A stretch of 64,000 nt of DNA from Opitutus sp. GAS368 (GCA_945868215.1 CAMBLN010000001.1:5424-69423), one strand, 5' to 3'; counted from the first letter of the stretch, positions 2,625 to 48,827 are shown. Numbers and translations: made by a program. Notes: generated from the sequence alone by a model not told the origin.

Positions 2625-2659
2625 GTAAATCGCACTGACGATTATTTTTTCATTACAAG

Positions 2660-31169: not shown

Positions 31170-32183
31170 TCACGGAGAAGCCAAGCTGTCGCGCAGCAGC
31201 AGCCGCCCCGGCAGAACCGCATGCTGGATCGGTGCCGGATCGGGATTTTCCAAGGTGTCGATCAGGATCTCCGCCGCTTTAGCGCCGATGCGCGCCAGGG
31301 GCTGACGCACCGTGGTCAACCGCGGCTGGCACCACTCGCCCACCGCAAAGCCGTCGAAGCCAGTGATTGATATGTCCTGAGGCACTCGCACCCCGAACGT
31401 CGCCGCATGGCGGATCAATGACACCGCGATAAGATCGTTCACACATACAAGAATGCTCGGACGCTGCTCCGGCGCCAGAGCCACCACCTGCTTCCACACA
31501 TCCAGAGCCATCTTGCCCTCCATGTCCGAACGCAGAATCAACGGAGTCCACGTGTTGCCGACTTGATTGGTCACATGCACGGAAAACGCACGTTCTCGCT
31601 CGCTCAGCGAACCTTGATTCCAGCTTGCAGTCACCAAAGCAAAACGCCGGTGACCCAGTCCCCAAGCATGGTCAATCATCTCGCCAAGCGCTTCGTAATC
31701 ATCCACATCCACGGAAGAAGCATTATTCGCGCGGGTTTCGCATCCAACCAACACAATCGGCAACCGGGTATGCCCGAAACCGTTCAGGAGCACATTGTCC
31801 GGTGAAAGCACCACCGTAGCCAATCCATCGATCGAGGCATCATCCAACACCGAAAATACTTCGTCCGAAGTGGGATCGGCCTGCACCGTAATTTTCACCT
31901 GATACCGGCGACGACTTGCCTCCGAAAGAAAACCTTGAAGCACTCCAACAAAGTAATGGTTCTCCGGGTGGGAAAAATTAAATCGTTCCTCGATTAGAAT
32001 GCCAAGAGTCTGGCTACTCTGACGCACCAAGCTGCGTGCCAAATTGTTTCGGCGATAACCCAGCTCACGAGCCGCCTGCTTCACCCTCTCGCCGGTTTCA
32101 GCAGAATAAGTCGTCTCCTTCCCAAGTAAAACATTTGAAACCGTCGTGATCGACACGCCAACTGCGGCAGCTATGTCTTTCAC
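31170..32183 (-). CDS. LacI-family transcriptional regulator
   Basis: KDIAAAVGVSITTVSNVL HTH, LGYRRNNLARSL hinge, LGHRRFA, DISITGFDG, LTTVRQP. Confidence 0.92.
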   Translation of the reverse strand: MKDIAAAVGVSITTVSNVLLGKETTYSAETGERVKQAARELGYRRNNLARSLVRQSSQTLGILIEERFNFSHPENHYFVGVLQGFLSEASRRRYQVKITVQADPTSDEVFSVLDDASIDGLATVVLSPDNVLLNGFGHTRLPIVLVGCETRANNASSVDVDDYEALGEMIDHAWGLGHRRFALVTASWNQGSLSERERAFSVHVTNQVGNTWTPLILRSDMEGKMALDVWKQVVALAPEQRPSILVCVNDLIAVSLIRHAATFGVRVPQDISITGFDGFAVGEWCQPRLTTVRQPLARIGAKAAEILIDTLENPDPAPIQHAVLPGRLLLRDSLASP

Positions 32184-32368: not shown

Positions 32369-35254
32369 ATGTCTTACCCCGCTCCAGCTATTCCGCGCCA
32401 TGCTGCGAGCGCTTGGTTCAGCTTGGTCCTGCTTGTCTCACTGTCCGGCTTGCCTGCCATCCCGTTGGAGGCCCAACCGCAAATATCGATTGAATCTCAA
32501 TTGGTGGAGATCGAGACCTATTTCAAGAAGGGCCAGGCGTCCCAAGCGGCCGGCATCCTGGATCGCATCCTCGCCCGACTGGACGCGGGCGAAGCCATGC
32601 CAGCCGGGTTATCCGCAGCACAGATTCGCCTCGCTGCGGCCACGGCCCACTTTCAGTCGCGTAACTACGCCCGGGCCGCCGAGATCGCCGCCACCGTGCC
32701 CAATTCCCCCGGTGCGACTCCTCAGATCATCGGCGAGGCCGCCATGATCCAAGGTCTCGGCCTCGCGCTGGAGAAGAAGTTTGACGAAGCCCTGCCCGCC
32801 TTCAAAGCAGCCGCAGCCTATGGCCCGCAGCGCGACCGTGCCTTGCTCTACGCGGCCCGCGCAGCCTATCAGGCCGGCAAGCCCGACGAGGCTATAGCCG
32901 GCTACAATCGACTGCTCGAAAGCGGCCTCCGCGATCGAGACTGGGGTGACGCAGCCCTCGCATTGATCTCACTCCACCTCGAGCGCGGAAACCTTGCGGA
33001 AGCCAAGCGCGGGCTCGCCTTGATGCGCGGCAAGCTCGACCTCGTGGACAACCTCGCCGGGCTCAACATCCTGTATCTCCAGCTGGGCGATTCGCTCTTC
33101 GCCGCCAAAGACTACGACGCCGCACTCGCAGCCTACCGCACCATATACCCGCGCGAACGCCTGTTGAACGAACAGAAGGCCATCAACGCCCAACTCGACG
33201 CACAGATCGCGCGCATCACATCCCTGCCCCGTCCCTCAACCACTGATCAAGACCTGCTGCTTCGCCTCACCAATCGCCGCGAACAAGCCGGGGCCGCTCT
33301 CGAAAGAATCACCGCGATGGCCGACTACGACAACATCGTGCGTTACCGGCTGGGCCTGTGTTTTCAGGAGAGGGGCGGCACGTGGCAGGCCGCGTTGATT
33401 TACGAGGACCTGCTCACCCGTCACCCCGATCCCGCCGCATATTACAACTTGGTTCGTGCCTACGCCGACGCAGGACGCTTCACGCGAGTGCGCACCGCCG
33501 CCGAACGCTTTCAAAAAGCGTTCCCCGCACACGAACTCGTGCCAAAAGCCATGTTTTTGGCCGCACTCGCCGCCGGCCGCACCCGCGATGTCGATGCCCA
33601 GCTGCGTTTCCTCGACCAGGCCGTCGAGGCCGCGTCCACTCCGGATTTGCGCGAAACCATCCTGCTGATGCGCGCCAACGCCTTGTTCACGCTCGCCCGC
33701 TACGACGACGCCGGACGCGCCTGCGCCAATTACCTCAAAGAGTTTCCCAAAGGACGCTTTGCCGAAGAAAACACCTACCTTGAGGCCATGGCCGATCTCA
33801 ACCTCGGACGCGCCTCGCGCGCAGAGGAAAAACTCAAGGCCTACCTCGCCGCTTATCCTAAAGGTAAGTTCGACGCCGACGCCCGCTACCGCCTCGCAAC
33901 CACCGCCTATGCCCGGCAGGACTACCAGCTCGCCATCAAAATCACCATCAATTGGCTCCTTGATTTCCCCACGGACCACCACCAGCGCGGTGAGATTTTA
34001 TCACTCCAAGGCGACGCCTTTTCCGGTGCCAACCAAATCGACGACGCGGTCGCAAGCTACACCGCCGCCCTGCAAATCAAACTGCCCGACGAACTCCTCG
34101 GCTACGTTCTCGACGAGCTCACGCGCCTGCATCAGACACGCCGCGACTACGACACCGCCGTCGCGATCTGGACGGATTTTGCCCGCGAAAATCCCGACCA
34201 CCCCTACGTCATAAACGCCGCCTACTGGATCGGACGCCTGCGCGCCCGCCAAGGCAAGAACAGTGAAGCCATCGACGCTCAAGCAGGCATCCTCCGCCGC
34301 TACGTGACCGAGCCGCAGTTCGACAATGTCGAGCGGCTGCTGATCGAGTTCGCCAGTCACCTTGCCCAGCCTGCGCGCACGAAAAAGAAGGAAGATACCA
34401 CCCCGCCGGTTTCGATTCTGGAACTCTACGAACGCGTCGAGACGCTCCTGATCAACAACCGCACCGGCAAGTCGCCCACCAGCGTCGCCCGCGTGCTTTT
34501 CACGCAAGCCGAAATCGCCATTTTGCGCAACGAGCCCGACCGCGCCGGCGAACTCTACAGGCGCATCGCCACCGAATTCACCCCCGATACCCTGCCCCCC
34601 GGCATCCTGGGCAAGGTCGGCGATTACCTGTTCCGCGTCGGCCAGCCCGAGGCCGCCCGGCCGTTTTTCCAACGCATCGTCGATGCCCACGCCCGCAGCG
34701 TATTCGCCGATTTCGGTTACCAAGGTCTTGGCCAGGTGGCCTTGCGTGCCGGTCGTCCCCAGGAAGCCTTGGACTTTTTTACCGTCGCCGTGGACAAGAC
34801 TGGAGCGCGTTTCAAATTGCGGGAGATCACCCTCGGTCGCGGTTACGCCCTGCTCGCGCTCGGTCGCCTCGACGAAGCTCGGCAGACCTTTGAATCCGTC
34901 GCCGCCAATCGAGCTTGGCGCGGCGAGTCCACCGCCGAAAGTCTTGTCGCACTCGGCGACACTGCCCGCAAATCCTCGGCGCCCGACGCTTTCGCCAAAG
35001 CCCAGGCCTACTATCAACGCGTCTACATCGGCTATAAACGCTTCCTGCCCTGGGTGGCGGCCGCCTACACGCGCGGTGCCGAATCCTTCCTCGCCACAGG
35101 ACAACGCGACGAGGCCATCACCACGCTTCAGCGCATGATGACCGACGACCGCCTCTCCTCCCTTCCCGCCTTCGCCCAAGCCCGCGACAGGTTGCGCGAA
35201 CTCATCGCCCAGCGCGACGGCGGACTCCCCTCGACTCCCCGGTTCGATTCCTAA
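32369..35254 (+). CDS. Large periplasmic tetratricopeptide-repeat protein
   Basis: 961 aa with a signal peptide and serial TPR-like helical repeats (e.g. YLKEFPKGRFAEE..YLEA, YLAAYPKGKFDADARYRLA). Confidence 0.85.
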   Translation: MSYPAPAIPRHAASAWFSLVLLVSLSGLPAIPLEAQPQISIESQLVEIETYFKKGQASQAAGILDRILARLDAGEAMPAGLSAAQIRLAAATAHFQSRNYARAAEIAATVPNSPGATPQIIGEAAMIQGLGLALEKKFDEALPAFKAAAAYGPQRDRALLYAARAAYQAGKPDEAIAGYNRLLESGLRDRDWGDAALALISLHLERGNLAEAKRGLALMRGKLDLVDNLAGLNILYLQLGDSLFAAKDYDAALAAYRTIYPRERLLNEQKAINAQLDAQIARITSLPRPSTTDQDLLLRLTNRREQAGAALERITAMADYDNIVRYRLGLCFQERGGTWQAALIYEDLLTRHPDPAAYYNLVRAYADAGRFTRVRTAAERFQKAFPAHELVPKAMFLAALAAGRTRDVDAQLRFLDQAVEAASTPDLRETILLMRANALFTLARYDDAGRACANYLKEFPKGRFAEENTYLEAMADLNLGRASRAEEKLKAYLAAYPKGKFDADARYRLATTAYARQDYQLAIKITINWLLDFPTDHHQRGEILSLQGDAFSGANQIDDAVASYTAALQIKLPDELLGYVLDELTRLHQTRRDYDTAVAIWTDFARENPDHPYVINAAYWIGRLRARQGKNSEAIDAQAGILRRYVTEPQFDNVERLLIEFASHLAQPARTKKKEDTTPPVSILELYERVETLLINNRTGKSPTSVARVLFTQAEIAILRNEPDRAGELYRRIATEFTPDTLPPGILGKVGDYLFRVGQPEAARPFFQRIVDAHARSVFADFGYQGLGQVALRAGRPQEALDFFTVAVDKTGARFKLREITLGRGYALLALGRLDEARQTFESVAANRAWRGESTAESLVALGDTARKSSAPDAFAKAQAYYQRVYIGYKRFLPWVAAAYTRGAESFLATGQRDEAITTLQRMMTDDRLSSLPAFAQARDRLRELIAQRDGGLPSTPRFDS

Positions 35255-35258
35255 TCCC

Positions 35259-36083
35259 ATGTCGCCCCGCACCCGATTCCTTCCGGCCCTTCTCGTGTTA
35301 GCCCTCGCCTGCGTCACCAACCACGCCCGCGCCCAACGCTATCTGCTCAAAGACAACTCCGTCATCCCCGCCAACGCGGCCACGTTGCGCGACGGCCAAC
35401 TCATTGCCACGGCCAACTTCGCCGGCGGCGGCGTTTTCGAACGTCGCATCGCACTCGGCGACATCGCCCGCCTCGACTTCCCGATTCCTGACGGGCTCGC
35501 CGAAGCGGAGGCTGCCTTGCTCGCCGGCAACCACGCCGAGAGCCTACGCTTGGTCACACCCATATATCAACGCTTTGCCCCCTTCGCCGCCATTCCAGGC
35601 AGCTACTTTGTGCAAGCCGCCCGGCTGCGTTTGCAGGCGCAAATGGCATCAGGCGACGAAGCCAACGCCACCGCCACAGCCAATGAACTCATCCGGCTCG
35701 ACCTCTCCCCCGAAATCAAAGGTATCGCTCACATGGCTCTCGCCGAAATCGTGGCCCGCAAAGGCCAGCCCGACGTCGCCGCGCTGATGATTGAGGAGAT
35801 CGTAAAAGACGCTCCCCCCGTCGTCCAGGCCCGTGCGTGGTTGTTGCGCGGCGAACTCGCCACGCGCCGCGCCGCCCACGAAGAGGCCGCAGAGGCCTTC
35901 CTCCGCGTGCAGGCGTTCTATGGCGATCAAGAATCTCTGATGCCCGCCGCTCTGCTCGGCGCCGGACGCGCCCTCCGCGCTTACGGAGACAAAGCCATGT
36001 CCGAGCGCATACTTGGTGATTTGCTTGACAACTACACCGGCACCGCCGAGGCCGCCGCCGCCAAAAAAGAACTCGGTTTCTGA
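35259..36083 (+). CDS. Exported TPR-containing protein
   Basis: Signal peptide, short beta N-domain, TPR helices (AEAFLRVQAFY...AALLGAGRAL). Confidence 0.75.
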   Translation: MSPRTRFLPALLVLALACVTNHARAQRYLLKDNSVIPANAATLRDGQLIATANFAGGGVFERRIALGDIARLDFPIPDGLAEAEAALLAGNHAESLRLVTPIYQRFAPFAAIPGSYFVQAARLRLQAQMASGDEANATATANELIRLDLSPEIKGIAHMALAEIVARKGQPDVAALMIEEIVKDAPPVVQARAWLLRGELATRRAAHEEAAEAFLRVQAFYGDQESLMPAALLGAGRALRAYGDKAMSERILGDLLDNYTGTAEAAAAKKELGF

Positions 36084-36105
36084 CTTCCACACTTATCCAC
36101 TCACC

Positions 36106-36903
36106 ATGAAAACGCCCCGTCTCTTCCTCTCCCTCTTCGTCGCTCTGGCCGCTCCCGCCGGCCTGCTTGCCCAAAGCCCCGCCGTCGTCGACGCCGGCCC
36201 CCAGGTGATCCGCAAATCCCTCCTCGGCGAATTGTCCGTCCCCGCCATCTGGCCGCTATGGCTATGCTCCGCCCTGATCATCTACCTCGTGGTTGATCTT
36301 ACCCTGAAAACCGGCCTGCGCGCCTTCATCACCCCTGAGGCGGTGAAGACGTTGCGCGATCGTTTCCGAGCCGGGGACTACCGTGGAGCCTATGCCTGGT
36401 GTGTGCAAAACCCCGCCCCCCTCACCAACATCATCGGTGCAGGCCTCAAGCACGCCGGCGGCGGCAAACAGGCATCCGAGGAAGCGATGGCCGCGCAGAT
36501 CGTCGGCGAAAACTCCCGCTTTCAAAACCGCATCGCTTACCTGTCCGTGATCGGCGTGATCGCCCCGATGATCGGCCTCACCGGCACGGTGATCGGCATG
36601 ATCCAAGCCTTCGCCGCCATGGGCCAGGCCGGTGCGGCCGACCCGTCCAAACTCTCCGGCGCCATCGGCCACGTGCTGCACGCCACCGCCGCGGGTCTCG
36701 CCGTCGCCATCCCGGCTTTCGTCGCCTATTACCTCCTCCGCAACCGCGTCAGCCACGCCATCCACGAGATCAGCGGCGAGGTCAACGAATTGTATCGCCG
36801 CTTCCCCTACAACCGTCTCGACGGTTTGGACTTCGAGGGTGCCGAGGCCTGCGCCGCCGCCCCCGATTGGGAAACCGCCCCCGTCCCCGAGAACCAGGGC
36901 TGA
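36106..36903 (+). CDS. exbB: MotA/TolQ/ExbB proton channel protein
   Basis: LSVIGVIAPMIGLTGTVIGMIQAF...LHATAAGLAVAIPA. Probable start is the ATG at 36106. Confidence 0.92.
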   Translation: MKTPRLFLSLFVALAAPAGLLAQSPAVVDAGPQVIRKSLLGELSVPAIWPLWLCSALIIYLVVDLTLKTGLRAFITPEAVKTLRDRFRAGDYRGAYAWCVQNPAPLTNIIGAGLKHAGGGKQASEEAMAAQIVGENSRFQNRIAYLSVIGVIAPMIGLTGTVIGMIQAFAAMGQAGAADPSKLSGAIGHVLHATAAGLAVAIPAFVAYYLLRNRVSHAIHEISGEVNELYRRFPYNRLDGLDFEGAEACAAAPDWETAPVPENQG

Positions 36904-36952
36904 TCCGTTCACGATCAGTCGCCCCTGAAAACCTTCAACCTCCCTCACGCAC

Positions 36953-37375
36953 ATGGCCAGCACTGGTGGCGCCGACGGCGAGCCCGAATTCCAAATAGCC
37001 CCGATGATCGACGTGCTGCTCGTGCTGCTCATTTTCTTCATGAGCATAGCGACCACTGCGGTCACCCGCTACGATCCGTCGATCAACCTGCCCACCGCCC
37101 CCGATGCAGGCAAAAAAGACGATTCCGAGGGCGAACTCGTTTTCAACATCTCCTGGAACGAAAATAACGAAACCGCCGTAACGACTTTCGAAGAAGCCTC
37201 CGTCAGGCCCGGCGACACCATCCCCACCTTGATGCGGCACCACAAGGCCAACCCCAAAGCCCGCGTGCTCATCCGCGCCGACGGCGAAACCCCCGTCGCA
37301 CACGTCAACGAGGTCATCGAGGCGGCCGCGCAGGCCGGAATCGTCGACGTGATCTTCGCCGCCGTGTCCAAGTGA
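36953..37375 (+). CDS. exbD: ExbD/TolR biopolymer transport protein
   Basis: QIAPMIDVLLVLLIFFM, VLIRADGET. Confidence 0.92.
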   Translation: MASTGGADGEPEFQIAPMIDVLLVLLIFFMSIATTAVTRYDPSINLPTAPDAGKKDDSEGELVFNISWNENNETAVTTFEEASVRPGDTIPTLMRHHKANPKARVLIRADGETPVAHVNEVIEAAAQAGIVDVIFAAVSK

Positions 37376-37394
37376 CCCGCCCCGCGCCTTTTCC

Positions 37395-37838
37395 ATGAAA
37401 CTCCCCGTCCAGTCGAACAACCCCGACGTCGGCTTCCAGATAGCCCCGATGATCGACGTCGTGTTCGTCATCCTCGTGTTCTTCATGTCGCTCGCCGCGC
37501 AGATCCGCATCGAACAAATCCTGCAGACGCGCCTTCCCGGTGTCGCCGTTGCCAGCAACGCCACCGACTTCGTTGACGAGCAGATCATCCGCATCGACGA
37601 AGTCGGCGAAATCACCCTCAACGACGAGGCGTTCGACCCGTCCGCCGACCGCGAACTCCCCATGCTCAAAGGCACACTCATGGCCCTCAAGCAGTCCAGC
37701 GACGCCGCCAAATCCAAACTTATGGTCACGGTCATCGCCCACCCCTCCTCCGCCTATTCCCGCACCATCGATGCGCTCAACGCACTGGCCGTCGCCGGTA
37801 TCACGGACGTGACCTTCACCGCCGCGACCGAACCTTAA
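37395..37838 (+). CDS. exbD: ExbD/TolR biopolymer transport protein (second copy)
   Basis: QIAPMIDVVFVILVFFM and a C-terminal ExbD domain. Confidence 0.9.
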   Translation: MKLPVQSNNPDVGFQIAPMIDVVFVILVFFMSLAAQIRIEQILQTRLPGVAVASNATDFVDEQIIRIDEVGEITLNDEAFDPSADRELPMLKGTLMALKQSSDAAKSKLMVTVIAHPSSAYSRTIDALNALAVAGITDVTFTAATEP

Positions 37839-37850
37839 GGTCCCCCGCCC

Positions 37851-39452
37851 ATGTCCGAACCCGTTCCCCCCTCTTCCCCCGACGCACCCGCATCGAAACG
37901 TTCCCTTTACCTGACGATCACCCGAAGCCTGCCGCTCCTCATCACGGTCATCGTTCACGTCATCATTCTGCTGATTGCCGGCGTATTTATCGTGCAGGAA
38001 CAGATCATCGGCAAAAAAAAGGTTCTCCAAGCCGCGCCTCCGCCGGATTCATCCGCGCAGAAACAGGTCGAGCACCGGCTTCAAGTCGCCCGTCGTGGCG
38101 GCGCTTCCGGGGCCTCCGGTTCGCCCATCGAGGTTGACCGCATTTTCTCCACCAACTCCGATGCGCTGCAAATGCCCGCGCTTCCCGATCTCCCTTCGGT
38201 TGGCGGCCCCGGTGGCTGGGGCGGTTTCGGTGGCAACGGTGCCGGTGTCGGTCTCGGCGCGGGTGCCGGCATGGCGACTTCCCTCGGTGCAGGCGCCGGT
38301 CTCGGCGGACGCGGCTTCATGTCGATGTCGTTCCTCGGCATCACCGATCAGAACGTCCAGAACGTCGTCTTCATCATCGACGCGAGCGCAAGGATGATGG
38401 ACCTCCGCAAGAGCGGTTTCCGCGCCTTCGAAATCATCCGCGATCAAATCGGTTCGCTCATCGGCCGCCTCCCGCCCGCCGCCAAGTTCAACGTCATCCT
38501 CTACGGCAACTCCTGGAACGCCCACTCCGACGTGAATCCCTTCCGCACCGAACTCGTCGCTGCCACCACCGAAAACAAAGAGGCCTTCTTCGCGTGGATG
38601 AAACCGGTGAACCTCAACTACGAAAAGATCGGGCCGGCGTCCGCGGCCACGTTCACTCCGTGGAAACCCAAACCGCTTCCCGACGGTTACGGTTTTGATC
38701 GCACGATAGGCCGCATGAACCGACTCGCCTCGCTCATTCAGGCAGGAATCGAGCAACAACCCGACACCATTTTCCTCATCACCGGCGATGTGGATGGCCG
38801 CGCAGGCTGGCGCGCGCCGCCTTCCGCCGAATTGATCCGCCGCCACCGCGCCCAATGGGACGAACGCGGAGATGACCGCCGCAAAGGAATGATCGAATAC
38901 GAGAAGGCCGTGGCGGAGCTCGCCCGCCGGGGAGTCACCCCCGAATCGATGGAACGCGCCCGCTCCGCTGCGAGCAAAAAAGCCGTCGCCGATCTCGCCG
39001 AAGCCAACCGGAAACTCGTCGCCGCCGGCAAACAGCCCGTGGTCAACATCGGCGGTCTGCGTGACATCCAAGGCCGCCAGTCCGAGCTGAAAAAAGCCGG
39101 CGTCAACATCTCCATCGATGGTCGCGGTTGGCTCGTGGACAACGAGGGCAAGCCCATCAATCTGCCCAACAAACCCGACATCACCTACAAAGCCCCCAAC
39201 AAGGAGGACTTCGGCTGGTCCGAGGTTCATCTCCACATCAACCGGCTCCAGCGCGCGTTCACCCCGAAGAAGGTCGCCGTCACCACCATGCTCTTCGTCG
39301 GTCCCGATGATAGCGAAGAAAAGGTGGAACAATGGAGCGAACCCTTGCGCGAGATCTCCAAACGCAACGACGGCAAGTTCCAGGTCATCACCACCAAACG
39401 CCTCGAAGAGATCATCAAAGCCCAGAACGCCGCGCCCGGCGGCAAATCCTAA
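37851..39452 (+). CDS. Membrane-anchored protein with a TonB/TolA-like anchor, Gly/Pro linker and vWA-like domain
   Basis: TM segment [14 protein letters not shown] (T/SxxxH as in TonB anchors), a Gly-rich linker, then [12 protein letters not shown]...FNVILY...[10 protein letters not shown] vWA-like strands. Confidence 0.7.
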
Positions 39453-39472
39453 AACCCAACGTCCTCGTTTCC

Positions 39473-40603
39473 ATGGCCACGGTCTCCCTTGAAAATCTCA
39501 CCAAAGTTTACGCCGAAAACAAGGGTTCCGGCGTGAAGGTTGTCCATGGCATCGACCTGGAAATCCGCGACCGCGAATTCATGGTCTTCGTCGGCCCCTC
39601 CGGCTGCGGCAAATCGACCACGCTGCGCATGATCGCGGGCCTCGAGGAAATCTCCGGCGGCACCATCTCCATCGACGGCAAAGTCGTGAACAACGTCCTG
39701 CCCAAGGACCGCGACATCGCCATGGTCTTCCAAAACTACGCGCTCTACCCGCACATGTCGGTTTACGACAACATGGCCTTTGGCCTGAAGCTGCGCAAAT
39801 TCCCCAAGGCCGAGATCGACCGTCGCGTGCGCGAAGCCTCCGCCTTGCTCGGTCTCGACGATTATCTCGCCCGCAAACCCAAGGCGCTCTCCGGCGGTCA
39901 ACGCCAGCGCGTCGCCGTCGGCCGCGCCATCGTCCGCCAGCCCAAGGTGTTCCTCTTCGACGAACCGCTTTCCAATCTCGACGCCAAAATGCGTGTCTCC
40001 ACCCGCACCGAGATTTCCAAGCTCCACGACCGTCTCGACGCGACCATGATCTACGTCACCCACGACCAGGTGGAGGCCATGACCATGGGCGACCGCATCT
40101 GCGTCATGAAGGACGGACACATCCTCCAGGTCGCCACCCCGCTCGAACTCTACAACCGCCCGGCCAATGTCTTCGTCGGCGGCTTCATCGGCAGCCCGCC
40201 CATGAATTTCTTTCGCGGCACGCTGCGCTCCGAGGGCGGTCGTATCCAGTTCACGGAGACCAACGCACCGGGCGCTCCCGTCGTGCTCACGCTCGACGAA
40301 CGTCTCGCCCGCGCCGGCGCCGCCCACGTGGGCCGGCCGGTCGTCTTCGGCATAAGACCCGAAAACGTAAGCGACTCCCGCACGCTCGCCAGTCCCGAAC
40401 CCTCCGTCTCCGCGCGCGTGCGCGTCGACGTCGTCGAGCCGATGGGGGCCGAGACCCATCTCTTCCTCGACACCGGCGCCACCGCCTTCATCACCCGCGT
40501 AGACCCCACGCGCTCCTACGCCGTCGGCGAAATGTTGTCCGTCACGTTCGACTTGGCCAGCGCCCATCTCTTCGACGGCGAGACCGAGGCCGTTTTGAAC
40601 TGA
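39473..40603 (+). CDS. Carbohydrate ABC transporter ATP-binding subunit (MalK/MsmX/UgpC family)
   Basis: GPSGCGKST Walker A, LSGGQRQR signature, [12 protein letters not shown]-terminal TOBE/regulatory domain. Start ATG at 39473. Confidence 0.95.
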
Positions 40604-40624
40604 ACCGCGCGCGCACCGCCGCCC

Positions 40625-42478
40625 ATGCCCGCCTCCCTCGTCTGGCTTCACTCCGACCGCCGCGCGGTCCTCTCGTCCGCCGTCGATGCGAACACCCCCG
40701 CGTGGCGCGCCCATTTGCTCGCCGCCGTCGCGCGCGAGACCGACCCGGCCGGCTCTTCCGAGATGAGCCGCCACGGCGACGGGGCGGTGCAACTTGCCTT
40801 GCGCGGCCTCACCCGGGGCGACGCCGCGCTCGCCGCCTCGGCCGTCAATCTTTGGCTTGGCGGACTCGACGGCATCGAGAAAAACAACGATCTCGGCAAA
40901 GCCCACCTGGCCCTCGACGCCGCCATCCTCTACGACGCCGCGTCCGCACTCTGGCCGGCGGAGACCCTCGCCGCCTGGCAACGCGGTGTGCTGCGGCTCA
41001 TCTCGGCGTTTTTCACCATCAGCCCGGGCAACCCCCACCACATCGTCAACAACTGGTGGGCCGTCACTCACTCCGGGCTTTACTGCGCCGTCGTCGCGCT
41101 GCGCGACTCGGGCATCGATGCCGCCGTCCCCGCCACCGGCCGCACGCTCGCACAGATCGAGTCATGGGCCTGGGGTCGCCTCGATGCGTTCCTCGGCCAC
41201 TTCGGCGAGACGGGCGCCTACCACGAGGGTCTGGGTTATCAGGACTACACGTGCTGCTACCTGCTCGCCGCCGCCCGTCTGCATGAAAACCGCGTCGGCA
41301 CCGCCCTCGCCAACCGCTTCCCCGGCCTCGCCCGCATGGCCGCGCTGATTTTCTCCACCGGCATCGAGGGCCCCGCCCGCAACGACTCCACCGGCGTGCG
41401 CGCCGGCTGGGGCCGCCAGCTCAGCTGGAACGACGCCGGTCTCGGCTGGCCCGACAGCGCCACGCCGCTGCTCGCCCTCGGCTGGGCGGAACCCGCTTTT
41501 CAACCCGCCCTTCGCGACCGCTGGGACCGGCTCTCCGGGCACCTGCGGCCCGACGGACACTCCTCATCTCGTTTCGGAGCGTTGTTTTTCCAACTCGCCC
41601 TTTATCCGGAATTGTCCGCGCCCTCCGCCACCGCCGCCCCGCTGCCGCTTTCCGTGTGCGACCGGCGGCAGGGTTTCTGGTTCACGCGCGATGCCTACGC
41701 CGGCCCCGCCGATGTCGTGCTAGGTGCCTACGCGCGCTGCACCCACCCCGGCGGACACTCCCAGCACGACGCCGGCTCGTTCCGCTTCTCGGCCCTAGGA
41801 TGGGACTGGGTTCTCGGCGGCGGCCAGGCCCGGCCCGAGGCCGGGTGGCAAAGCGTGGTGACCTCCTCCGGCGAGCAGTCCAAAAAAGCCCCGACCGGCT
41901 CCGTCCTGTGGGCGGGCGAACGTGTATTCGGAATGGAACTACGCAGCGTCCACCAAGGCTACGGGGAACGCTACCTCGCGTTTCATCCCGCGGGCCCCGC
42001 CGCCGTCGCCTTGCTCGACTTGATCGACGACCACCGCGACGACCGCGAATGGCGCTGGAACCTCACGTTCTCACCGGAACTCACCTGCACGTTCACCCCC
42101 GGCGGTTTCGTCCTGCTCGCCCCCGACGGCGCCCGGCTCATCGCATCTTTTCTCGGCGATCAACCGGTCTCGTTCGAGCTCGCCCATTCTCCGTCAAGCC
42201 GGCGCACGTTCGCCAATGGCAACATCGTCGACTACTCTTCGCGGCCGTGCGTCGTGGCCCGTTGTCCTCTCCGCAGCTCGCTCGCTCTCTACGTGGTGCT
42301 CACCGTGCACGCCCCCGGTGCCGACCTGCCACCGGCCACGTTGATTCCGGGCCAGGGTCTCTCAGTCGCGTGGGGCGACCAGGTCTGGTCGCAGCCTTTT
42401 GGAGACGCCTTACCCGCCACCGCCACGCCTGCTCTCCTGCGGTGCCAAAGCCCGTATCCCGCCCCCCTTTCCCAGTGA
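40625..42478 (+). CDS. Heparinase II/III-like (alpha/alpha-toroid + beta-sandwich) polysaccharide lyase-like protein
   Basis: NNWWAV, YHEGLGYQDY and GGHSQHDAGSF motifs. No signal peptide. Confidence 0.6.
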   Translation: MPASLVWLHSDRRAVLSSAVDANTPAWRAHLLAAVARETDPAGSSEMSRHGDGAVQLALRGLTRGDAALAASAVNLWLGGLDGIEKNNDLGKAHLALDAAILYDAASALWPAETLAAWQRGVLRLISAFFTISPGNPHHIVNNWWAVTHSGLYCAVVALRDSGIDAAVPATGRTLAQIESWAWGRLDAFLGHFGETGAYHEGLGYQDYTCCYLLAAARLHENRVGTALANRFPGLARMAALIFSTGIEGPARNDSTGVRAGWGRQLSWNDAGLGWPDSATPLLALGWAEPAFQPALRDRWDRLSGHLRPDGHSSSRFGALFFQLALYPELSAPSATAAPLPLSVCDRRQGFWFTRDAYAGPADVVLGAYARCTHPGGHSQHDAGSFRFSALGWDWVLGGGQARPEAGWQSVVTSSGEQSKKAPTGSVLWAGERVFGMELRSVHQGYGERYLAFHPAGPAAVALLDLIDDHRDDREWRWNLTFSPELTCTFTPGGFVLLAPDGARLIASFLGDQPVSFELAHSPSSRRTFANGNIVDYSSRPCVVARCPLRSSLALYVVLTVHAPGADLPPATLIPGQGLSVAWGDQVWSQPFGDALPATATPALLRCQSPYPAPLSQ

Positions 42479-45219
42479 GTATTGTCCAAAACTTCTTCTC
42501 GTCACAAATCCTTCGCGTATCGCTGGCCATTGCCGCCACCTTGTGTGCGCTCCCGCCCACGCAGGGCGAACCCGTCGCGGCTCCCGACGCACCCGCCGTC
42601 ATACGCGTAACCGGATACACGCCTTGGGCCTGGAGTCCTCCTAGCCGCGCGCGCCGCGCCGCATTCCAACACTTCATGTCCGAAGTCGTCGATCCGGCGA
42701 CCGGTCGACCTTGGGGCGAGCTCATCCGCATCGAGGCCGACAACCCCCTCAGCTTCCCCGGTTTCAGCCTCAAGATCCTCAACTTCGCCGCCGGCACCGG
42801 CGAGGAGGTCGTCGCCACCAGCACCGGCATCACCCAGTTTTACCAATACCGCGACCAACGCTTCCTCCTTCCCCTCAACCCCTTCATCTGGGAAATCAAC
42901 CGCGACGCCAAAGGTCGCCCCCTCCGCCTCCCCGACGGCTCGTGGGATTACGTTGCCGGTCCCGACGACGGCCGCGTCCTCCTCTGGCCCGATTGGAAAA
43001 ACCTGGCCCCCGCCTACCGCGAAATGGTCCAGTGGCGCGGCGACCTCTACGGCCTCCCCATCAGCAGCTCCGCCAACGGCCTGCTCTTCCGCCGCGATGC
43101 CTTCACTTCCGCCGGGCTCGACCCCGACCACCCGCCCGCCACGTGGGACGAATTTCTCGACGCCTGCCTGCGCATCTCCGCCCTCTCCACACCCGAATTC
43201 CCCGTCTTCGGTATACAACTCAACGCCAGCGTCATAGAAAGCTACCTGCTCGGCCTCGGCGGCAACCTCGCCCGTTCCGAGACCACGCCCGACGGCTCCA
43301 CCCGCTGGCTCTCCAGCGTCGCCTCGTCCGAAATGATCCGCACCGTCGAGTTCATCCGCCGTCTCACCCTCACGCGCTGGATCATCGACGACCAAGGCCG
43401 CCCCTTTGTCGTCCACCTACCCGACGCCCCTGCCGACTTGGTTCACCCTACCCTCGGCGAAGGCCGCTGGGAGGGCGCGCCCTACGCCGCCGGCTCCCGC
43501 TTCACCTTCCCCGGCCGCACCTACGCCGCCAACGAAATCCGCACCGGCATGGCCTTCAACCAACTGGGCGGCCAAGCCACCGAGGGAAACGTCAAATGGT
43601 ATAACCTCTTCACCGAACAAAAACCCCGCATCGGCATGTCGCTCAACACCCCCGAGCGCTTCGGCGATTTCCTCGCGGCCTTCGACCCCGATCTACTCGA
43701 CTTCGCCCCCGCTCCCGCCGGCCCCGCCGGTCGGGGAGTCTTCGCCCAGGGCGACATCGCCGGCCTCAACTACCGCCTCGCCGACGACCCCGCCACCGCC
43801 CGCCTCGCCTGGAACGTGCTCAGCTACCTCGCCAGCTCCGACTACAAAACCCAGATAGTCCACAGCTACGCCCGCGAAGGCGAAGGCATCGCCGAGACCA
43901 TCGCCCCCCGCCTCCTCGTCGCCAACGGCTACGATACCATCGCCGAACGCGTTTCCCCCTCCCTGCGCGAATACTGGGCCGGCCTCGACGACGCCGTCCG
44001 TCCCGTCATCCCCGCCAAAAACTTCCAGGCCATCACCCAGCAATACCTCAACCCCCTCTTCCGCGAGGCCTCCCTCAACCCCGCCTTCGACTACCGCAAC
44101 GCCCTCGCCGCCGCCCAGGAACAAATCCAGGCACGCCTCGATTTCGCCGCCGGCGACTACTCACGCGTAAAACACCGCGGCCTCGTCGTCGTCGCCATGG
44201 TCGTGATCATCGCCGGCGTCCTCATCGCCACCCTCTACGCCATCCGCTCCATGCTCCATAAAGCGGCCGCGTCCACCGGTGTCACCACCCTCGGCCCCAA
44301 CCCCCGCTACCAAGTCATGGCGTGGGCCCTCCTTTCTCCCGCCCTGCTTCTCATCTGCGTCTTCTCCTACTACCCCATCTTCAAGGCCCTCCCCGTCGCC
44401 TTCCAGGATTACAGCGTCACCGGCACCACCACCTGGGTCGGCACCGCCAATTTCGTCGAGATCTTCACCAACCCCGCCGCCTGGACCGCCCTCCTCAAGA
44501 CCGCCTACTACATGACCCTCAGCATCGGCTTCGGCTTTTTCGCCCCCGTCGTGCTCGCCATCCTGATGAACGAGATCCGCGCGTTCCGCTACTTCCTGCG
44601 CACCGTCTATTATCTGCCCGCGGTCATCGCCGGCATCGTCATGCTCCTGCTCTGGCAGCGCTTCTTCGAGCCCACCCCCAACGGCCTGGTCAACCAGATC
44701 TGGTTCGGCTGTATCCATATCTGGAATACAATCGCCCCCGCCTCTCTGGAGATCGCCCGTCAACCCGTGGACTGGCTCCGCCATCCGGTCTGGGGCATTC
44801 CCGCCGTCGTATTTGTCGGCGTCTGGGGCGGCATGGGGCCCGGCATGCTCATCTACCTCGCCGCCCTCAAGAGCATTCCCGAGGATCTCTACGAGGCCGC
44901 CGAACTCGACGGCGCCGGCTGGGGAGCCCGCTTCTATCACATCACCCTCTCCTACCTTCGCCCGTTGCTCGTCATCAACCTCATCGGTGCCGTCATCGGC
45001 GCCTTCCAGGCCTCCGGCAACATCCTCGCCCTCGCCGGCAACTTCCCCGCCACCTACACCTTCGCCGTCCACCTCTGGTTCGAGACCTTCGGCCTCGGCA
45101 ACTTCGGCGTCGGCACCGCCCTCTCCTGGGTCATGGCCGCCATCCTCATGGGCTTCACCCTCTGGCAGCTCCGCATCCTCCGCAACGTCGAGTTCCGCCG
45201 CTCCCAAGCCGACGACTGA
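42475..45219 (+). CDS. Fusion of extracellular solute-binding protein and sugar ABC permease (MalF-like)
   Basis: GTG at 42475 overlaps the upstream TGA. Signal peptide, SBP_bac_1-like motifs (LYGLPISSSANGLLFRRDAF...PPATWDEF), then a permease with the EAA loop SIPEDLYEAAELDGAG. 914 aa. Confidence 0.85.
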   Translation: MSIVQNFFSSQILRVSLAIAATLCALPPTQGEPVAAPDAPAVIRVTGYTPWAWSPPSRARRAAFQHFMSEVVDPATGRPWGELIRIEADNPLSFPGFSLKILNFAAGTGEEVVATSTGITQFYQYRDQRFLLPLNPFIWEINRDAKGRPLRLPDGSWDYVAGPDDGRVLLWPDWKNLAPAYREMVQWRGDLYGLPISSSANGLLFRRDAFTSAGLDPDHPPATWDEFLDACLRISALSTPEFPVFGIQLNASVIESYLLGLGGNLARSETTPDGSTRWLSSVASSEMIRTVEFIRRLTLTRWIIDDQGRPFVVHLPDAPADLVHPTLGEGRWEGAPYAAGSRFTFPGRTYAANEIRTGMAFNQLGGQATEGNVKWYNLFTEQKPRIGMSLNTPERFGDFLAAFDPDLLDFAPAPAGPAGRGVFAQGDIAGLNYRLADDPATARLAWNVLSYLASSDYKTQIVHSYAREGEGIAETIAPRLLVANGYDTIAERVSPSLREYWAGLDDAVRPVIPAKNFQAITQQYLNPLFREASLNPAFDYRNALAAAQEQIQARLDFAAGDYSRVKHRGLVVVAMVVIIAGVLIATLYAIRSMLHKAAASTGVTTLGPNPRYQVMAWALLSPALLLICVFSYYPIFKALPVAFQDYSVTGTTTWVGTANFVEIFTNPAAWTALLKTAYYMTLSIGFGFFAPVVLAILMNEIRAFRYFLRTVYYLPAVIAGIVMLLLWQRFFEPTPNGLVNQIWFGCIHIWNTIAPASLEIARQPVDWLRHPVWGIPAVVFVGVWGGMGPGMLIYLAALKSIPEDLYEAAELDGAGWGARFYHITLSYLRPLLVINLIGAVIGAFQASGNILALAGNFPATYTFAVHLWFETFGLGNFGVGTALSWVMAAILMGFTLWQLRILRNVEFRRSQADD

Positions 45220-45277
45220 CCCCGTCTTCGCGCCCTTCGTCTCTTCGCTTTAAAACCATACTCAGCCCTCTCTTTCC

Positions 45278-47164
45278 GTGGCCATCATCTCCATCATCGA
45301 CCGCACAAACCCCAAAGGGCGCCTCGCCATGCTCGCCATCTACGCCGTGCTCTTCCTCGGCGCGATCAGCATGCTCTACCCGTTCCTGCTCATGCTCCGC
45401 ATGACCACGTCCGACCCCATCGACCAAACCTCCGTCTCCATCCTGCCGCGCTACCTCTGGGAGGAAAACATCTCCGCCCGTAAATACCTCCTCAAACAAT
45501 ATCGTCTCGTCCCGGCCCGGCAGCTCCCCGCCATCTACGGTGCCCGCGACTGGAGCAACCTAAACCAGGTCGAAGACTTTTACGACCGCCACCTCGCCCC
45601 CTTCGACGCCCTGCCGGCCGAGAAACTCGCCACCCGCATCGCCGACTACGAAGCCTTCAAGGCCCAGGCCGACCTGCTCCAGCTCTACCCCCTCGCCACC
45701 TACCGCCCCGACCAGTCCTTCGAGGATTTCTTCATCGTCAACTGGCTCGCCCGCCGCGAGGGCGTCTCCCCCAAGACCTACCAGTTCTACGAACCTATCC
45801 ACGCCGACTTCGCCCGCCGCGACTGGGTCCCCCCCTTCGATAAATCCTGGACCCAATGGCAGGACTGGCTCGCCCAGCTCCCGCCCTCCCAACGCCTCGC
45901 CGCCAGCGCCCACGCCCAATGGCAGGCCTACCTCGCCGAGAAATACCGCGGACAACTCCCCGCCCTTAACGCCGCCCACGCCACCGCGTATTCAGATTTC
46001 AACCACGGCCCTTGGTTCTCCCCCGAACCCCCCGCCCAAGCCTCCCCCGGCCTCCTCGCCGACTGGACCGACTTCGTCACTTCCCGCTACCCGCTCGTCT
46101 GGCAGAGCCTCCGTCCCTCCGCAGCCGAGACCGCCTCCGCCGACTGGCGCGACTACCTCGCCCAAAGCGTCGCCATCACCACCGCCGACGAATGGACCCG
46201 CCGCACCGGCCTCCCCGCCGACCAAGGCTACACCAACCTTCCTCTCGCCATGCCGCCCGACCAGGCCGCCGCCCGCTGGTGGAGCGCCTTCGTCGCCACC
46301 CGCATACCCGCCTCTGACCGCGTTATCACCTCACCCGAAGCCGACTTCACCGCCTTCCTCCGCACCCGCCACCCCGACCTCGCCTCCCTCAACGCCGCCT
46401 GGGGCACCGACTTCGCCACGTGGGACTCCATCCGCTTCCCCCAGGCCGAAGCCGACTACGCCGTCATCAAAACCCACGCCAACGGCATCCTCTGGGACAT
46501 CTCCCTCGGCAACTACCGCACCGTGTTCAAAGCCCTCGTCCTCGAAGGCCGCGCCTTCAGCAACACCGCGATCATCCTCGCCCTCTCCATCCTCACGTCC
46601 CTCACCGTCAACCCCATCGCCGCCTACGCCCTCTCCCGCTTTCGCGTCAAAGGCACCCAGAAGATCCTCATCTTCCTCCTCGCCACCCTCGCCCTCCCCG
46701 GCGAGGTCGCGATGGTCCCCGGCTTCCTCCTCGTCCGCGACCTCCATCTCATCGACACCTACTGGGCGCTTGTCCTGCCCACCGCCGCCAACGCCTTCAG
46801 CATCTTCCTGCTCAAAGGCTTTTTCGACTCGCTTCCCCAGGAACTCTACGAAGCCGCCCTCATCGACGGCGCCGGCGAGTTCACGCTTTTCACCCGCATC
46901 ACCATCCCGCTGTCGATGCCCATCCTCGCCGTCACGCTCCTCGGCACCGTGACCCACGCTTATAACATCTTCATGCCCGCCGTCATGTATCTGGGCGACA
47001 CCAACATGTGGCCCATCGCCACCAGTATCTATAGAATCGGGCAAACCTCCTCCGCCGGCGTGGGCATGGCTGCGCTCGTGGTCTCCTCGATTTTCCCGCT
47101 CCTCGTTTTCGTTTTCTGCCAACGCATCATCATGCGCGGCATCATTCTCCCCAGCATGAAATGA
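45278..47164 (+). CDS. Sugar ABC permease (MalG-like) with a large extracytoplasmic insert
   Basis: First TM segment ...MLYPFLLML, an insert of about 370 aa, then AAYALSRF and SLPQELYEAALIDGAG EAA loop. Confidence 0.88.
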   Translation: MAIISIIDRTNPKGRLAMLAIYAVLFLGAISMLYPFLLMLRMTTSDPIDQTSVSILPRYLWEENISARKYLLKQYRLVPARQLPAIYGARDWSNLNQVEDFYDRHLAPFDALPAEKLATRIADYEAFKAQADLLQLYPLATYRPDQSFEDFFIVNWLARREGVSPKTYQFYEPIHADFARRDWVPPFDKSWTQWQDWLAQLPPSQRLAASAHAQWQAYLAEKYRGQLPALNAAHATAYSDFNHGPWFSPEPPAQASPGLLADWTDFVTSRYPLVWQSLRPSAAETASADWRDYLAQSVAITTADEWTRRTGLPADQGYTNLPLAMPPDQAAARWWSAFVATRIPASDRVITSPEADFTAFLRTRHPDLASLNAAWGTDFATWDSIRFPQAEADYAVIKTHANGILWDISLGNYRTVFKALVLEGRAFSNTAIILALSILTSLTVNPIAAYALSRFRVKGTQKILIFLLATLALPGEVAMVPGFLLVRDLHLIDTYWALVLPTAANAFSIFLLKGFFDSLPQELYEAALIDGAGEFTLFTRITIPLSMPILAVTLLGTVTHAYNIFMPAVMYLGDTNMWPIATSIYRIGQTSSAGVGMAALVVSSIFPLLVFVFCQRIIMRGIILPSMK

Positions 47165-48000
47165 CCATGCGCTTCCTTCGATCAGTCACGTTGTTCGTTT
47201 TAACCGCGTCCGCCGCCTTTGCCGATTCCCTCGCCGGCAGCTCGGACTCGCGTTCAGAAAAAATTCCCTTCGACCCGGCGGCGTGGACCCTCGTCTGGTC
47301 CGACGAATTCGACAAACCCGGCACGCCCAACCTCGCCGTATGGATCGGCGAACGCGGCTACCGCCGCAACAAGGAGGCGCAATACTACACCGGTGAACGC
47401 CCCGAAAACATCCGCATCGAAAACGGACATCTCGTGATCGAAGCGTTGCGCGACAACTGGGAAGGCAAGCCCATCACCTCCGCCAGCCTGACCACCCGAG
47501 GCAAACACACCTTCCTCTACGGCCGCATCGCCGTGCGCGCCAAGATCCCCACCGGCAGGGGCGCCTGGCCCGCCATCTGGACCATGGGCCAAAACGTGAA
47601 CGAGGTGAACTGGCCCGCCTGTGGCGAGATCGACATCATGGAAAACGTCGGCTTCGACCCGCGAAAAATCCACGCCAACATCCATTGCGCGACCTACAAC
47701 CACAAGAAACGCACCGGCAAGGGACGCGCCATCACGGTCGATGCCCCGTGGTCGGAGTTTCATGAATACGCGGTCGAATGGTATGAGGACCGGCTGGAGT
47801 TCTTCTTCGACGACACACGTTATTTTGTTTTCCGCAAAGAGTCCGATGACCCCGCCGTGTGGCCGTTTGCCCAACCGCATTACCTGCTCCTCAACCTCGC
47901 CATCGGCGGCACCTGGGGCGGCCAGAAAGGCATCGACGACTCCATCTTCCCCCTCCGTTTCGAAATCGACTACGTGCGCCACTACCAGCGCAAAAAATGA
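47161..48000 (+). CDS. GH16 glycoside hydrolase (laminarinase/beta-glucanase-like), secreted
   Basis: Signal peptide, LVWSDEF, WPAIW, WPACGEIDIME catalytic motif, DYVRHYQ. Confidence 0.9.
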   Translation: MTMRFLRSVTLFVLTASAAFADSLAGSSDSRSEKIPFDPAAWTLVWSDEFDKPGTPNLAVWIGERGYRRNKEAQYYTGERPENIRIENGHLVIEALRDNWEGKPITSASLTTRGKHTFLYGRIAVRAKIPTGRGAWPAIWTMGQNVNEVNWPACGEIDIMENVGFDPRKIHANIHCATYNHKKRTGKGRAITVDAPWSEFHEYAVEWYEDRLEFFFDDTRYFVFRKESDDPAVWPFAQPHYLLLNLAIGGTWGGQKGIDDSIFPLRFEIDYVRHYQRKK

Positions 48001-48827
48001 CTTCATCAGGCCGCCGGCCATCGCGGTTAATCCTGTTATTCGTAGCGTTGATCACCGCTGCGTCCGCCTGCGCGCAGGACCGCGTGGTGGTGATGAGTTA
48101 TAACATCCTCCGCCCCGAGTGGGCGAAACCCGCCGACCCCGCGTGGGGCGAACGGGTGGGCGGCATCGCGAAACTACTCGGGACGCATAAGCCGGATATC
48201 GTGGGCTTGCAGGAAGAGAACGATTCGATGGTGGCCGACCTGCTGGATCGGCTCCCCGACTACGCCTACCTTTATCCGGTTCCGGAGAAAGGCGGACGGC
48301 TGCTCTTTCGTTACCGCACGTGGACTCCGCTGGCGGTTCGCCAGGAAAACGGACCCGGCGGCCGCGTCCTCACCGAAGCCTTGTTGCGCGGGCCCGGCGG
48401 ACGGCGCCTCTATGTTTACAACGCACATTTTTCCCCGTTTGAGGAAAAGGCCCGACTTGAAGCCGCTGCCCTGCTCGCGCGGATGATTGCGACCCGCGCG
48501 GAGACATCCGTGCCTGTGGTGGTGACGGGCGATCTCAACTCGGTTCCCGCTTCGCCCCCGCTGCGCTTCCTGACCCAGGACGATAACGGGCCGCGGCTCA
48601 CCGACCCCTTCGCGGCGCTCGGCCTCCCCTCACCCCGCACGGCGGATGCCTACACTGCGCATCGGCCGGGCGCGGGAATCAGACTGGACTTCGTGTTGTT
48701 TGCCGGAGCCCTGCGTCCCCTCGGCGCGAACGCCATCGAGGACAAGCCCGACGGGGTTTACCCGTCCGATCATCTTCCGGTGTGCGCCGTCTTTTCCTGG
48801 GAGCCTCCTCCCCGCCAAAAACCGTAA
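47997..48827 (+). CDS. Exported endonuclease/exonuclease/phosphatase (EEP) family protein
   Basis: ATG at 47997 (ATGA overlap), signal peptide, MSYNI, DIVGLQE, YNAHF, GDLNS, RLDFV, SDHLPV. Confidence 0.88.
   Translation: MTSSGRRPSRLILLFVALITAASACAQDRVVVMSYNILRPEWAKPADPAWGERVGGIAKLLGTHKPDIVGLQEENDSMVADLLDRLPDYAYLYPVPEKGGRLLFRYRTWTPLAVRQENGPGGRVLTEALLRGPGGRRLYVYNAHFSPFEEKARLEAAALLARMIATRAETSVPVVVTGDLNSVPASPPLRFLTQDDNGPRLTDPFAALGLPSPRTADAYTAHRPGAGIRLDFVLFAGALRPLGANAIEDKPDGVYPSDHLPVCAVFSWEPPPRQKP

Follow-up and report, generated by a model that had tools for sequence, protein, structure and literature searches.

We analysed a 64-kb window of DNA (the whole stretch studied, 64,000 nucleotides, in whose coordinates all window positions are given) with a GC content of 60–71%; its source is a lake (freshwater) population of uncultured Opitutaceae. 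The subject is a run of 12 co-oriented genes on the plus strand at 32369–48827 (16.5 kb), delimited by open reading frame (ORF) listing and by Pfam and NCBIfam scans. [quoted passage not shown] Sequence, fold and synteny establish the first six genes (unit 1, 32369–39452) as a motor module driven by the proton-motive force (PMF), consisting of an ExbB/TolQ-like channel, a heterologous ExbD/TolR pair, X and the two TPR proteins. Regarding the run as a whole, the best explanation, to which we give a probability of about 0.55, is that two separable systems stand side by side in this lineage, rather than one dedicated physical machine.

The first-pass annotation of this DNA had described a single co-oriented run with small gaps and 4-bp overlaps, divergent from a LacI-type regulator and with no TonB-dependent receptor in 64 kb, and this description held in every part. 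All the genes are present, with intergenic distances of, in order, 4, 22, 49, 19, 12, 20, 21, −4, 58, −4 and −4 bp, including three overlaps of 4 bp. Starts were refined for four genes (ExbB at 36106, MalK at 39473, the SBP-permease fusion at 42475 and EEP at 47997); that of the fusion is a GTG overlapping the stop of the gene before, and a gap of 192 bp follows EEP, the final gene. The LacI-family gene (31170–32183, minus strand; Pfam LacI 2.8e-13, Peripla_BP_3 1.8e-27) is separated from TPR1 by an AT-rich spacer of 185 bp, in which we looked for an operator of the LacI consensus type (TGnAAnCGnTTnCA) and found none. The promoter scan of the run gave no sigma-70-like promoter, and terminator-like sites within it were at chance level, with 17 seen versus 15.5 expected from shuffled sequence. 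An independent contig (run X1) is identical to the window over 37376–39731 with zero differences, so the junction between X and MalK is not an assembly artefact. Across the window, about 37 large ORFs were scanned with no match to Plug, TonB_dep_Rec, SusC or SusD; six large ORFs had no Pfam match at all.

The module opens with TPR1 (32369–35254, plus strand), a 961-aa protein with a signal peptide (TPR_16 3.7e-32) and with YfiO/BamD-like and CpoB/YbgF-like repeats, followed by TPR2 (35259–36083, plus), a secreted protein of 274 aa in which a non-TPR N-terminal domain precedes TPR repeats (weak TPR_16 and TPR_21). The ExbB/TolQ-type proton-channel subunit (36106–36903, plus; 265 aa) matches PF01618 at 7.1e-28 and carries an N-terminal signal peptide; its best NCBIfam match is TolQ, with 69.6 bits, under the cut-off. 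ExbD1 (36953–37375, plus; 140 aa; PF02472 3.6e-18) and ExbD2 (37395–37838, plus; 147 aa; PF02472 5.5e-13) are 30% identical to each other and both keep the transmembrane (TM) aspartate, within PMIDV in ExbD1. The motor subunits all remain under the NCBIfam equivalog cut-offs. Neither the run nor its flanks contained TolA, TolB or Pal domains (Pfam, NCBIfam), and Pfam scans of called or flanking genes, in the loci for which they were made, gave no TonB_C-domain gene in or adjoining the module.

X (37851–39452, plus; 533 aa) has a TonB-like topology: a TM helix with a TxxxH motif, a Gly-rich disordered linker and a C-terminal domain of vWA fold with a helical-hairpin insertion. When 30 homologs are aligned, all of them have T32 and H36 within the single TM helix; E74, H75, R76, Q78, A80 and R81, in a stretch of the linker directly after it (EHRLQVARR), are likewise invariant, and the C-terminal part, of about 360 residues, is well conserved. 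The AlphaFold2 model places the TM helix at 19–52, with a predicted local distance difference test (pLDDT) value below 50 for residues 49–157 and about 90 for the C-terminal domain. The best Foldseek matches of this domain in the PDB are vWA domains (3txa at 4e-4, 7ba2, CLCA1 and vWF A1), some of which belong to pilus tip and minor pilins; the insertions keep the TM-scores modest. By sequence, Pfam VWA matches are weak, a search of the PDB returned nothing, and there was no TonB_C match in Pfam or NCBIfam. A metal ion-dependent adhesion site (MIDAS) was considered and rejected, as only D177 of DxSxS is conserved in the alignment. Hence the TxxxH-anchored vWA protein proposed by the first-pass annotation is real, with T32 and H36 invariant, a head of vWA fold and a gene that sits behind ExbB and two ExbD. 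X has hundreds of homologs, nearly all called 'hypothetical', in Opitutaceae and relatives, and 1133 clusters match it at E ≤ 1e-3 in a library of representatives at 50% identity. A class of vWA-type motor-driven force transducers has been described computationally in bacteria of the Planctomycetota–Verrucomicrobiota–Chlamydiota (PVC) group, with a Tichowtungia family (PMC12204202; Mol Biol Evol 2025, section 8). The EHRLQVARR motif would correspond to the 'motor box' of that class, and X presumably engages the motor by way of the TxxxH helix.

We then compared gene order from the side of the module, searching the twelve window proteins by tblastn against 70 Opitutales loci with an X homolog (from a scan of one genome per species) and six more from exact-protein look-ups; loci are designated by L numbers. 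The full colinear TPR1-TPR2-ExbB-ExbD1-ExbD2-X set was present in 39 loci; 14 further loci end at a contig edge and still show ExbD2-X, and 23 have X without ExbD in the available sequence. TPR1 orthologs keep their position in the 39 loci at 39–55% identity, ExbB is 54–76% identical across Opitutales and ExbD2 62–78%. The neighbours of the module are mostly housekeeping genes. A 128-aa gene of the glyoxalase family (70–88% identity) adjoins X in 28 related loci, immediately downstream in 27 of them and upstream in L073. In a set of 124 flanking genes taken from 37 module loci, glyoxalase (18) and SBP_bac_5 (14) were followed by GYF/RDD and assorted housekeeping enzymes, and no GH family was matched by two or more of these 124 proteins; in TAV5, RNase R comes directly after the module. 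As for the ABC genes, among the 53 module-bearing loci (39 complete and 14 partial) they lie downstream in L001 and L007, with a third locus, L004, that starts at X. These three are the closest relatives of the window (X at 66–68% identity), only they have the trio of lyase, SBP-permease and permease after X, and in them the lyase gene follows X directly, with MalK not in between. The synteny comparison thus speaks against the claim that the module is dedicated to an ABC importer.

Three observations accompany this comparison. The SBP_bac_5 gene, of oligopeptide type, flanks the module in 14 of the 37 loci and may belong to the ancestral module operon; in L005 (2723–4429), the locus in which its position was read, it is the gene next upstream of TPR1 and has the same orientation. 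In three genomes a second X paralog stands in tandem between X and the glyoxalase gene (L034:11661–12985, L041:11745–13277 and L046:11626–13053). Five loci (L011, L019, L022, L038 and L044) come from metagenome-assembled genomes (MAGs) labelled 'Akkermansia muciniphila' or 'uncultured Akkermansia sp.', yet carry typical Opitutaceae modules (X 42–47%, same synteny); the labels look like a taxonomic error.

The second part of the run starts 20 bp after X with an ABC ATPase of MalK/MsiK type (39473–40603, plus; ABC_tran 9.3e-32, OB_MalK 1.3e-11, TOBE_2 3.3e-9). The gene that follows (40625–42478, plus) encodes a 617-aa cytoplasmic protein with neither a signal peptide nor a Pfam model, to which we assigned a lyase fold with AlphaFold2 and Foldseek. 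Its model (pLDDT 91.5) combines an (alpha/alpha) toroid with a beta-sandwich and matches GAGase II (8khv, 2e-17), heparinase II and lyases of PL15, PL17, PL33 and PL35 with TM-scores of 0.6–0.7; among the 44 PDB matches listed at E ≤ 0.001, all are lyases except one dermatan sulfate epimerase. Since the model matches polysaccharide lyases, the label 'lyase-like' given in the first annotation is correct at the level of the fold, which is of heparinase II/III type. By sequence, a search of the PDB gave a weak similarity to PL35 only (E 0.007–0.04). The family comprises 57 clusters, all 'hypothetical' and only from Verrucomicrobiota, Planctomycetota and Lentisphaerota, with N142, N143, H200, Y205, Y208 and H378 invariant. 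We regard it as a candidate new family of cytoplasmic polysaccharide lyases.

The next gene (42475–45219, plus) is the SBP-permease fusion, of CUT1 and UgpA/MalF type (SBP_bac_1 2.3e-9, BPD_transp_1 1.2e-10, UgpA 7.6e-20), with an N-terminal solute-binding domain of about 560 aa. The fusion had been proposed before and is genuine, with both domains in one ORF and the same architecture in all 51 homolog clusters, which are mostly from Verrucomicrobiota and match SBP_bac_1/8 and BPD_transp_1. The second CUT1 permease, of UgpE/MalG type (45278–47164, plus; BPD_transp_1 5.9e-11 at 454–621, UgpE 2.1e-25 at 406–623), has a periplasmic insertion of about 380 aa after TM1, and in related loci this insertion-bearing permease always comes directly after the fusion. 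The insertion itself gave a weak GH42-like match. The run closes with two secreted proteins whose genes each overlap the preceding one by 4 bp: GH16 (47161–48000, plus; PF00722 8.7e-27), with a visible signal peptide, and EEP (47997–48827, plus; PF03372 4.2e-19).

From the side of the importer, the outcome was alike. The SBP-permease pair has no ExbB, ExbD, TPR or X in the available flanks of L078–L081 and of the informative metagenomic loci L083, L085, L087–L090, L092–L094 and L096, where its neighbours are GH28, GH10, GH130, GH52, GH29, GH4, ketohexokinase, lyxose isomerase and regulators of the DeoR, GntR and AraC types. In every case the pair is part of a GH28/GH10/GH130/GH52/GH29 island. 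A dedicated coupling is not supported from this side either: in about ten other contexts no module accompanies the pair, and in L077 one adjoins it. There, the pair is divergent from a GH29-TPR (927 aa)-301 aa-ExbB-ExbD-ExbD-vWA (345 aa) series. The L077 module (L077:2133–8595), between the GH29 gene and the pair, is only 24–36% identical to that of the window (ExbB 36%, TPR 24%), with permeases at 55–58%, and is a second, very divergent module type from a distant lineage.

The X family is not restricted to core modules. Stand-alone paralogs keep T32 and H36 (P0083, P0088 and P0092 in the alignment of 30 homologs), and most of them fall in a clade of their own in a neighbour-joining tree. A Pfam census of 67 neighbours in 16 loci with a stand-alone X counted GH5 eight times, GH2 three times and GH125, GH1, GH92, GH38 and GH29 once each, besides SASA esterases (two), BD-FAE (two) and LacI and AraC regulators. 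The gene directly upstream of the paralog is an MFS_2 sugar transporter in L023, a Na/alanine symporter in L026, GH27 in L028 and GH5 in L006; in L037 the paralog comes directly after a MalK 73% identical to that of the window. This distribution, an observation newly made here, supports a role of the X family in glycan acquisition through the presence of the paralogs in clusters of carbohydrate-active enzyme (CAZyme) and transporter genes.

In L017, L047 and L067, the stand-alone X lies one or two genes after a protein of 1240–1310 aa (L017:5420–9232, L047:5503–9231 and L067:5277–9215), and the window contains a homologous, unannotated ORF of about 1417 aa at 5437–9690 on the minus strand. The N-terminus of these giant proteins (RGFAL[IL][IV]T..., RRGFALMVTVLLLAFLVLLLV) resembles minor pseudopilins of GspK type, without Glu at +5; the proteins have no Pfam match. 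No giant ORF of this GspK-like type was found in 820 kb of core-module loci. The giant protein of L078 (14334–18551), within the same overall size range of 1240–1420 aa, sits between canonical prepilin genes, straight after the SBP-permease pair.

MUL1 of Akkermansia muciniphila, the subject of Davey et al. in 2023, is reportedly a periplasmic TPR-containing complex needed for mucin use. Later papers present mul1A (Amuc_0544) as an Akkermansia mucin-transport gene whose mutant is defective in mucin use (PMC12570417), list Amuc_0546, two genes downstream of mul1A, among 'biopolymer' transporters (PMC11480725), and mention that MUL1 'resembles the Sus system' and that aquatic Akkermansiaceae lack MUL1 synteny (PMC13174399). 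TPR2 matched the NCBIfam model NF052542 (Mul1B family putative transporter subunit) with E 0.0037 over residues 76–171, as a colinear match in the non-TPR N-terminal domain, and so did 21 of 37 TPR2 orthologs at E < 0.01 (best 7.9e-6), all of them far under the 75-bit cut-off. In NCBIfam, the TPR1 orthologs matched generic TPR models only, with no specific Mul1A signal, and the 301-aa protein of L077 had no Mul1B match. As far as sequence can tell, the window module is plausibly the Opitutaceae counterpart of MUL1, as a lead and not as demonstrated orthology. The link to mucin import in Akkermansia that the first-pass annotation had mentioned has some basis in the mul1A and Amuc_0546 literature and in the weak Mul1B match, and its orthology part stays a lead.

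Regarding expression, about a dozen short contigs from three metatranscriptomes fall on the region; some bridge TPR1/TPR2 and ExbD1/ExbD2, and none X/MalK. Exact matches came from two freshwater or sediment samples, at 35044–35274, 37234–37422, 38538–38762 and 40184–40439 of the window, so the module and MalK are expressed in situ at a low level.

Taking the synteny from the module side and from the importer side together, each system is mostly found without the other, and this carries our reading of the run as two separable systems. Several points weigh against it. The gap of 20 bp between X and MalK, with no terminators above chance, is packed as in any operon, and adjacency in two distant lineages (the window clade and L077) exceeds what is expected by chance for two unrelated single-copy loci. 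The window-type module may also be a second, island-dedicated copy. Concerning the link to glycans, the score of TPR2 with the Mul1B model is 16.5 against 75 bits, in a comparison made through the family model and not with Akkermansia sequences; GH5 is found near stand-alone X in 8 of 67 neighbours versus at most 1 of 124 near the core module (Fisher p about 0.001), a value that overstates independence because several loci are orthologous to each other; and no outer-membrane partner was identified.

One could argue, then, that the module of window type is a copy specific to this island and in physical cooperation with the ABC importer, the twelve genes forming one LacI-controlled operon in which a PMF-driven scaffold hands fragments on. 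The junctions of 20, 21 and −4 bp without terminator excess speak for it, and so do the persistence of the adjacency in the window clade with X at only 66–68% identity, its second occurrence in the distant L077 and the stand-alone X of L037 directly behind a closely related MalK. So does the fact that the X proteins of the window clade form their own branch in the tree, with a standard-type X in the same MAG at equal coverage. In that MAG, contig L007, with the window-type X and the ABC genes, has a coverage of 34, and contig L015, with a standard-type X, one of 31. They start at the same position of ExbD2 and share exactly 127 identical bases, the assembly k-mer, before continuing into X genes that are 45% identical; L001, which stems from a different metagenome, ends at this base of ExbD2 too, so that the break recurs in contigs of three assemblies. 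L007 and L015 fit either a genome with two modules and a shared ExbD stretch or two organisms binned together. If there really are two modules in one genome, that of window type is a duplicate dedicated to the island, which adds weight to the coupling model. However, the two-copy MAG may be the product of mixed binning, as its contigs share just one 127-mer graph node, and the conserved ExbB/ExbD and MalK stretches draw contigs of related organisms in metagenomes. Also on the opposite side are the 53 module-bearing loci, 50 of which have no ABC genes downstream, the roughly ten SBP-permease contexts with no module in their flanks, the absence of MalK from the junction in the closest relatives of the window and the lack of a transcript across X/MalK among the dozen or so short metatranscriptome contigs. 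On balance, we find this alternative unlikely.

Alternatively, the module could be an envelope system of Tol-Pal-like or gliding/adhesion type in which X replaces TolA, with a part in tethering the outer membrane, in division or in movement on surfaces and none in nutrient uptake, its position in a CAZyme island being accidental. The motor subunits do score higher with TolQ/TolR than with ExbB/ExbD models, and TPR1 exceeds the cut-off of the YbgF/CpoB model (121.8 against 90.1 bits). Conservation of the module appears to be high, its neighbours are housekeeping genes, and gliding motility is what the authors of PMC12204202 suggest for the force transducers. Against this, the locus is devoid of TolB, Pal and TolA domains, and the YbgF match is a generic TPR signal on a protein of 961 aa. 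The many X paralogs in CAZyme and transporter clusters do not fit, and the Mul1B-like signal opposes it, together with the mucin defect of the mul1A mutant (PMC12570417). We hold this explanation to be quite improbable. Lastly, the module could be a plain Ton energiser for classical receptors encoded elsewhere, with X as an accessory and not the transducer, and in its favour there are phyla in which classical TonB systems come with ExbB-ExbD-ExbD clusters that have TPR partners (Vibrio TonB2 with TtpD). TonB/Plug genes are also reported in some Opitutales-related isolates (PMC13274419), but with no TonB_C gene in or adjoining the module in the loci scanned with Pfam, X in the position of TonB with a TonB-type S/TxxxH helix and no receptor in the 64-kb window, this idea has very little chance of being right.

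Under our preferred reading of two separable systems, the ExbB/TolQ-like channel and the ExbD/TolR pair would drive X, in which a vWA head stands in place of the TonB C-terminal domain, and the two periplasmic TPR proteins would serve as a scaffold. Docked on the motor, X would pull on an outer-envelope partner other than a classical TonB-dependent receptor, maybe a structure of secretin or pseudopilus type, and the pull would admit large glycans to the periplasm, as proposed for Akkermansia MUL1. The core module would serve the entire cell, with the extra X paralogs of individual CAZyme loci acting as adaptors for particular substrates on that one motor. Unit 2 (39473–48827) is a CUT1 importer, ordinary in principle, with a tethered binding domain, within a GH28/GH10/GH130/GH29 catabolic island. 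Oligosaccharides, probably uronate-containing, would pass from the tethered domain across the inner membrane to a cytoplasmic cleavage resembling that of exo-lyases, while the secreted GH16 and EEP would act outside. Both units would lie in series on one uptake route. In regard to the import machine initially proposed, what stands is a PMF-driven TPR/vWA machine linked to glycans through the paralogs and the Mul1B signal; what is not supported is a general coupling to the ABC genes and a direct hand-off. It is plausible that the motor is a general energiser of glycan uptake.

A bolder picture can be drawn, which we consider speculative and doubtful in its entirety: one PMF motor (ExbB, two ExbD and two TPR proteins) would serve interchangeable vWA transducers from different glycan loci, pulling on an apparatus like type IV pili or type II secretion with giant GspK-like tips and reeling glycan into the periplasm, with the window copy as an island-dedicated duplicate with its own ABC importer. 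It would extend over Opitutaceae and perhaps Verrucomicrobiota generally. If true, such a mechanism would join porins and TonB-dependent transporters as a third way of taking up nutrients through the outer membrane.

The literature treats the SusCD-independent passage of large glycans across the outer membrane of Verrucomicrobiota as unsolved (PMC8857213; PMC13174399). Together with about 90 related loci, the present locus connects three subjects that stand apart in the papers cited: the computationally defined vWA 'force transducers', the genetically defined Akkermansia MUL1 complex and the CAZyme islands of free-living Opitutaceae. The X paralogs next to GH5, MFS or MalK genes would be expected to be needed for the matching substrate only, and the core motor for all substrates; if so, an organising principle like that of polysaccharide utilization loci (PULs) would be defined in a second major polysaccharide-degrading phylum.

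The rest of the window is a dense CAZyme island, with GH92, GH10, two GH29, GH52, GH130, GH16, four GH28, GH42, a giant PA14 protein and ketohexokinase. Two secreted proteins of about 660 aa (2639–4612 and 26696–28696, both on the plus strand), without a Pfam match and 50% identical to each other, are a duplicated family of no known type inside this island.

Compared with known systems, unit 2 has the features of CUT1 importers such as MalFGK2 and UgpAEC, namely a MalK-type ATPase that carries OB/TOBE domains, a pair of BPD_transp_1 permeases, one of UgpA and one of UgpE type, and a family-1 SBP, here fused. It differs from them in this fusion to the UgpA-type permease and in the insertion of about 380 aa in the UgpE-type one, an architecture limited to about 51 clusters, mostly from Verrucomicrobiota. 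Binding domains fused to ABC importers are known from GlnPQ and OpuA. With Tol-Pal and its CpoB/YbgF, the module has in common the TolQ/TolR-like subunits and a TPR protein that matches the YbgF model, although this protein has 961 aa and TolA, TolB and Pal are missing. With the Ton system (ExbB5-ExbD2-TonB, including the SusCD PULs), it shares a PMF-driven motor of ExbB/ExbD type, an N-terminally anchored transducer, an S/TxxxH helix, a long flexible linker and paralogous transducers spread over substrate loci; unlike there, the transducer has no TonB C-terminal domain, and the 64-kb window has no Plug/barrel receptor or SusD. With MUL1, as it appears in the papers cited above, the common traits are periplasmic TPR proteins, a 'biopolymer transporter' gene nearby and the weak Mul1B match of TPR2.

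The closest relation is to the vWA force transducers of PMC12204202. [quoted passage not shown] Because all four sequence-level features are present, the window module is a member of this class, already described in 2025, and is not new as a kind. That work gives no function or phenotype for these proteins and mentions neither glycans nor Akkermansia. The window differs from the described members by its two TPR genes, by TxxxH in place of SxxxH and by a MIDAS that is not conserved; furthermore, its family has stand-alone paralogs in CAZyme loci, and the window copy abuts an ABC importer.

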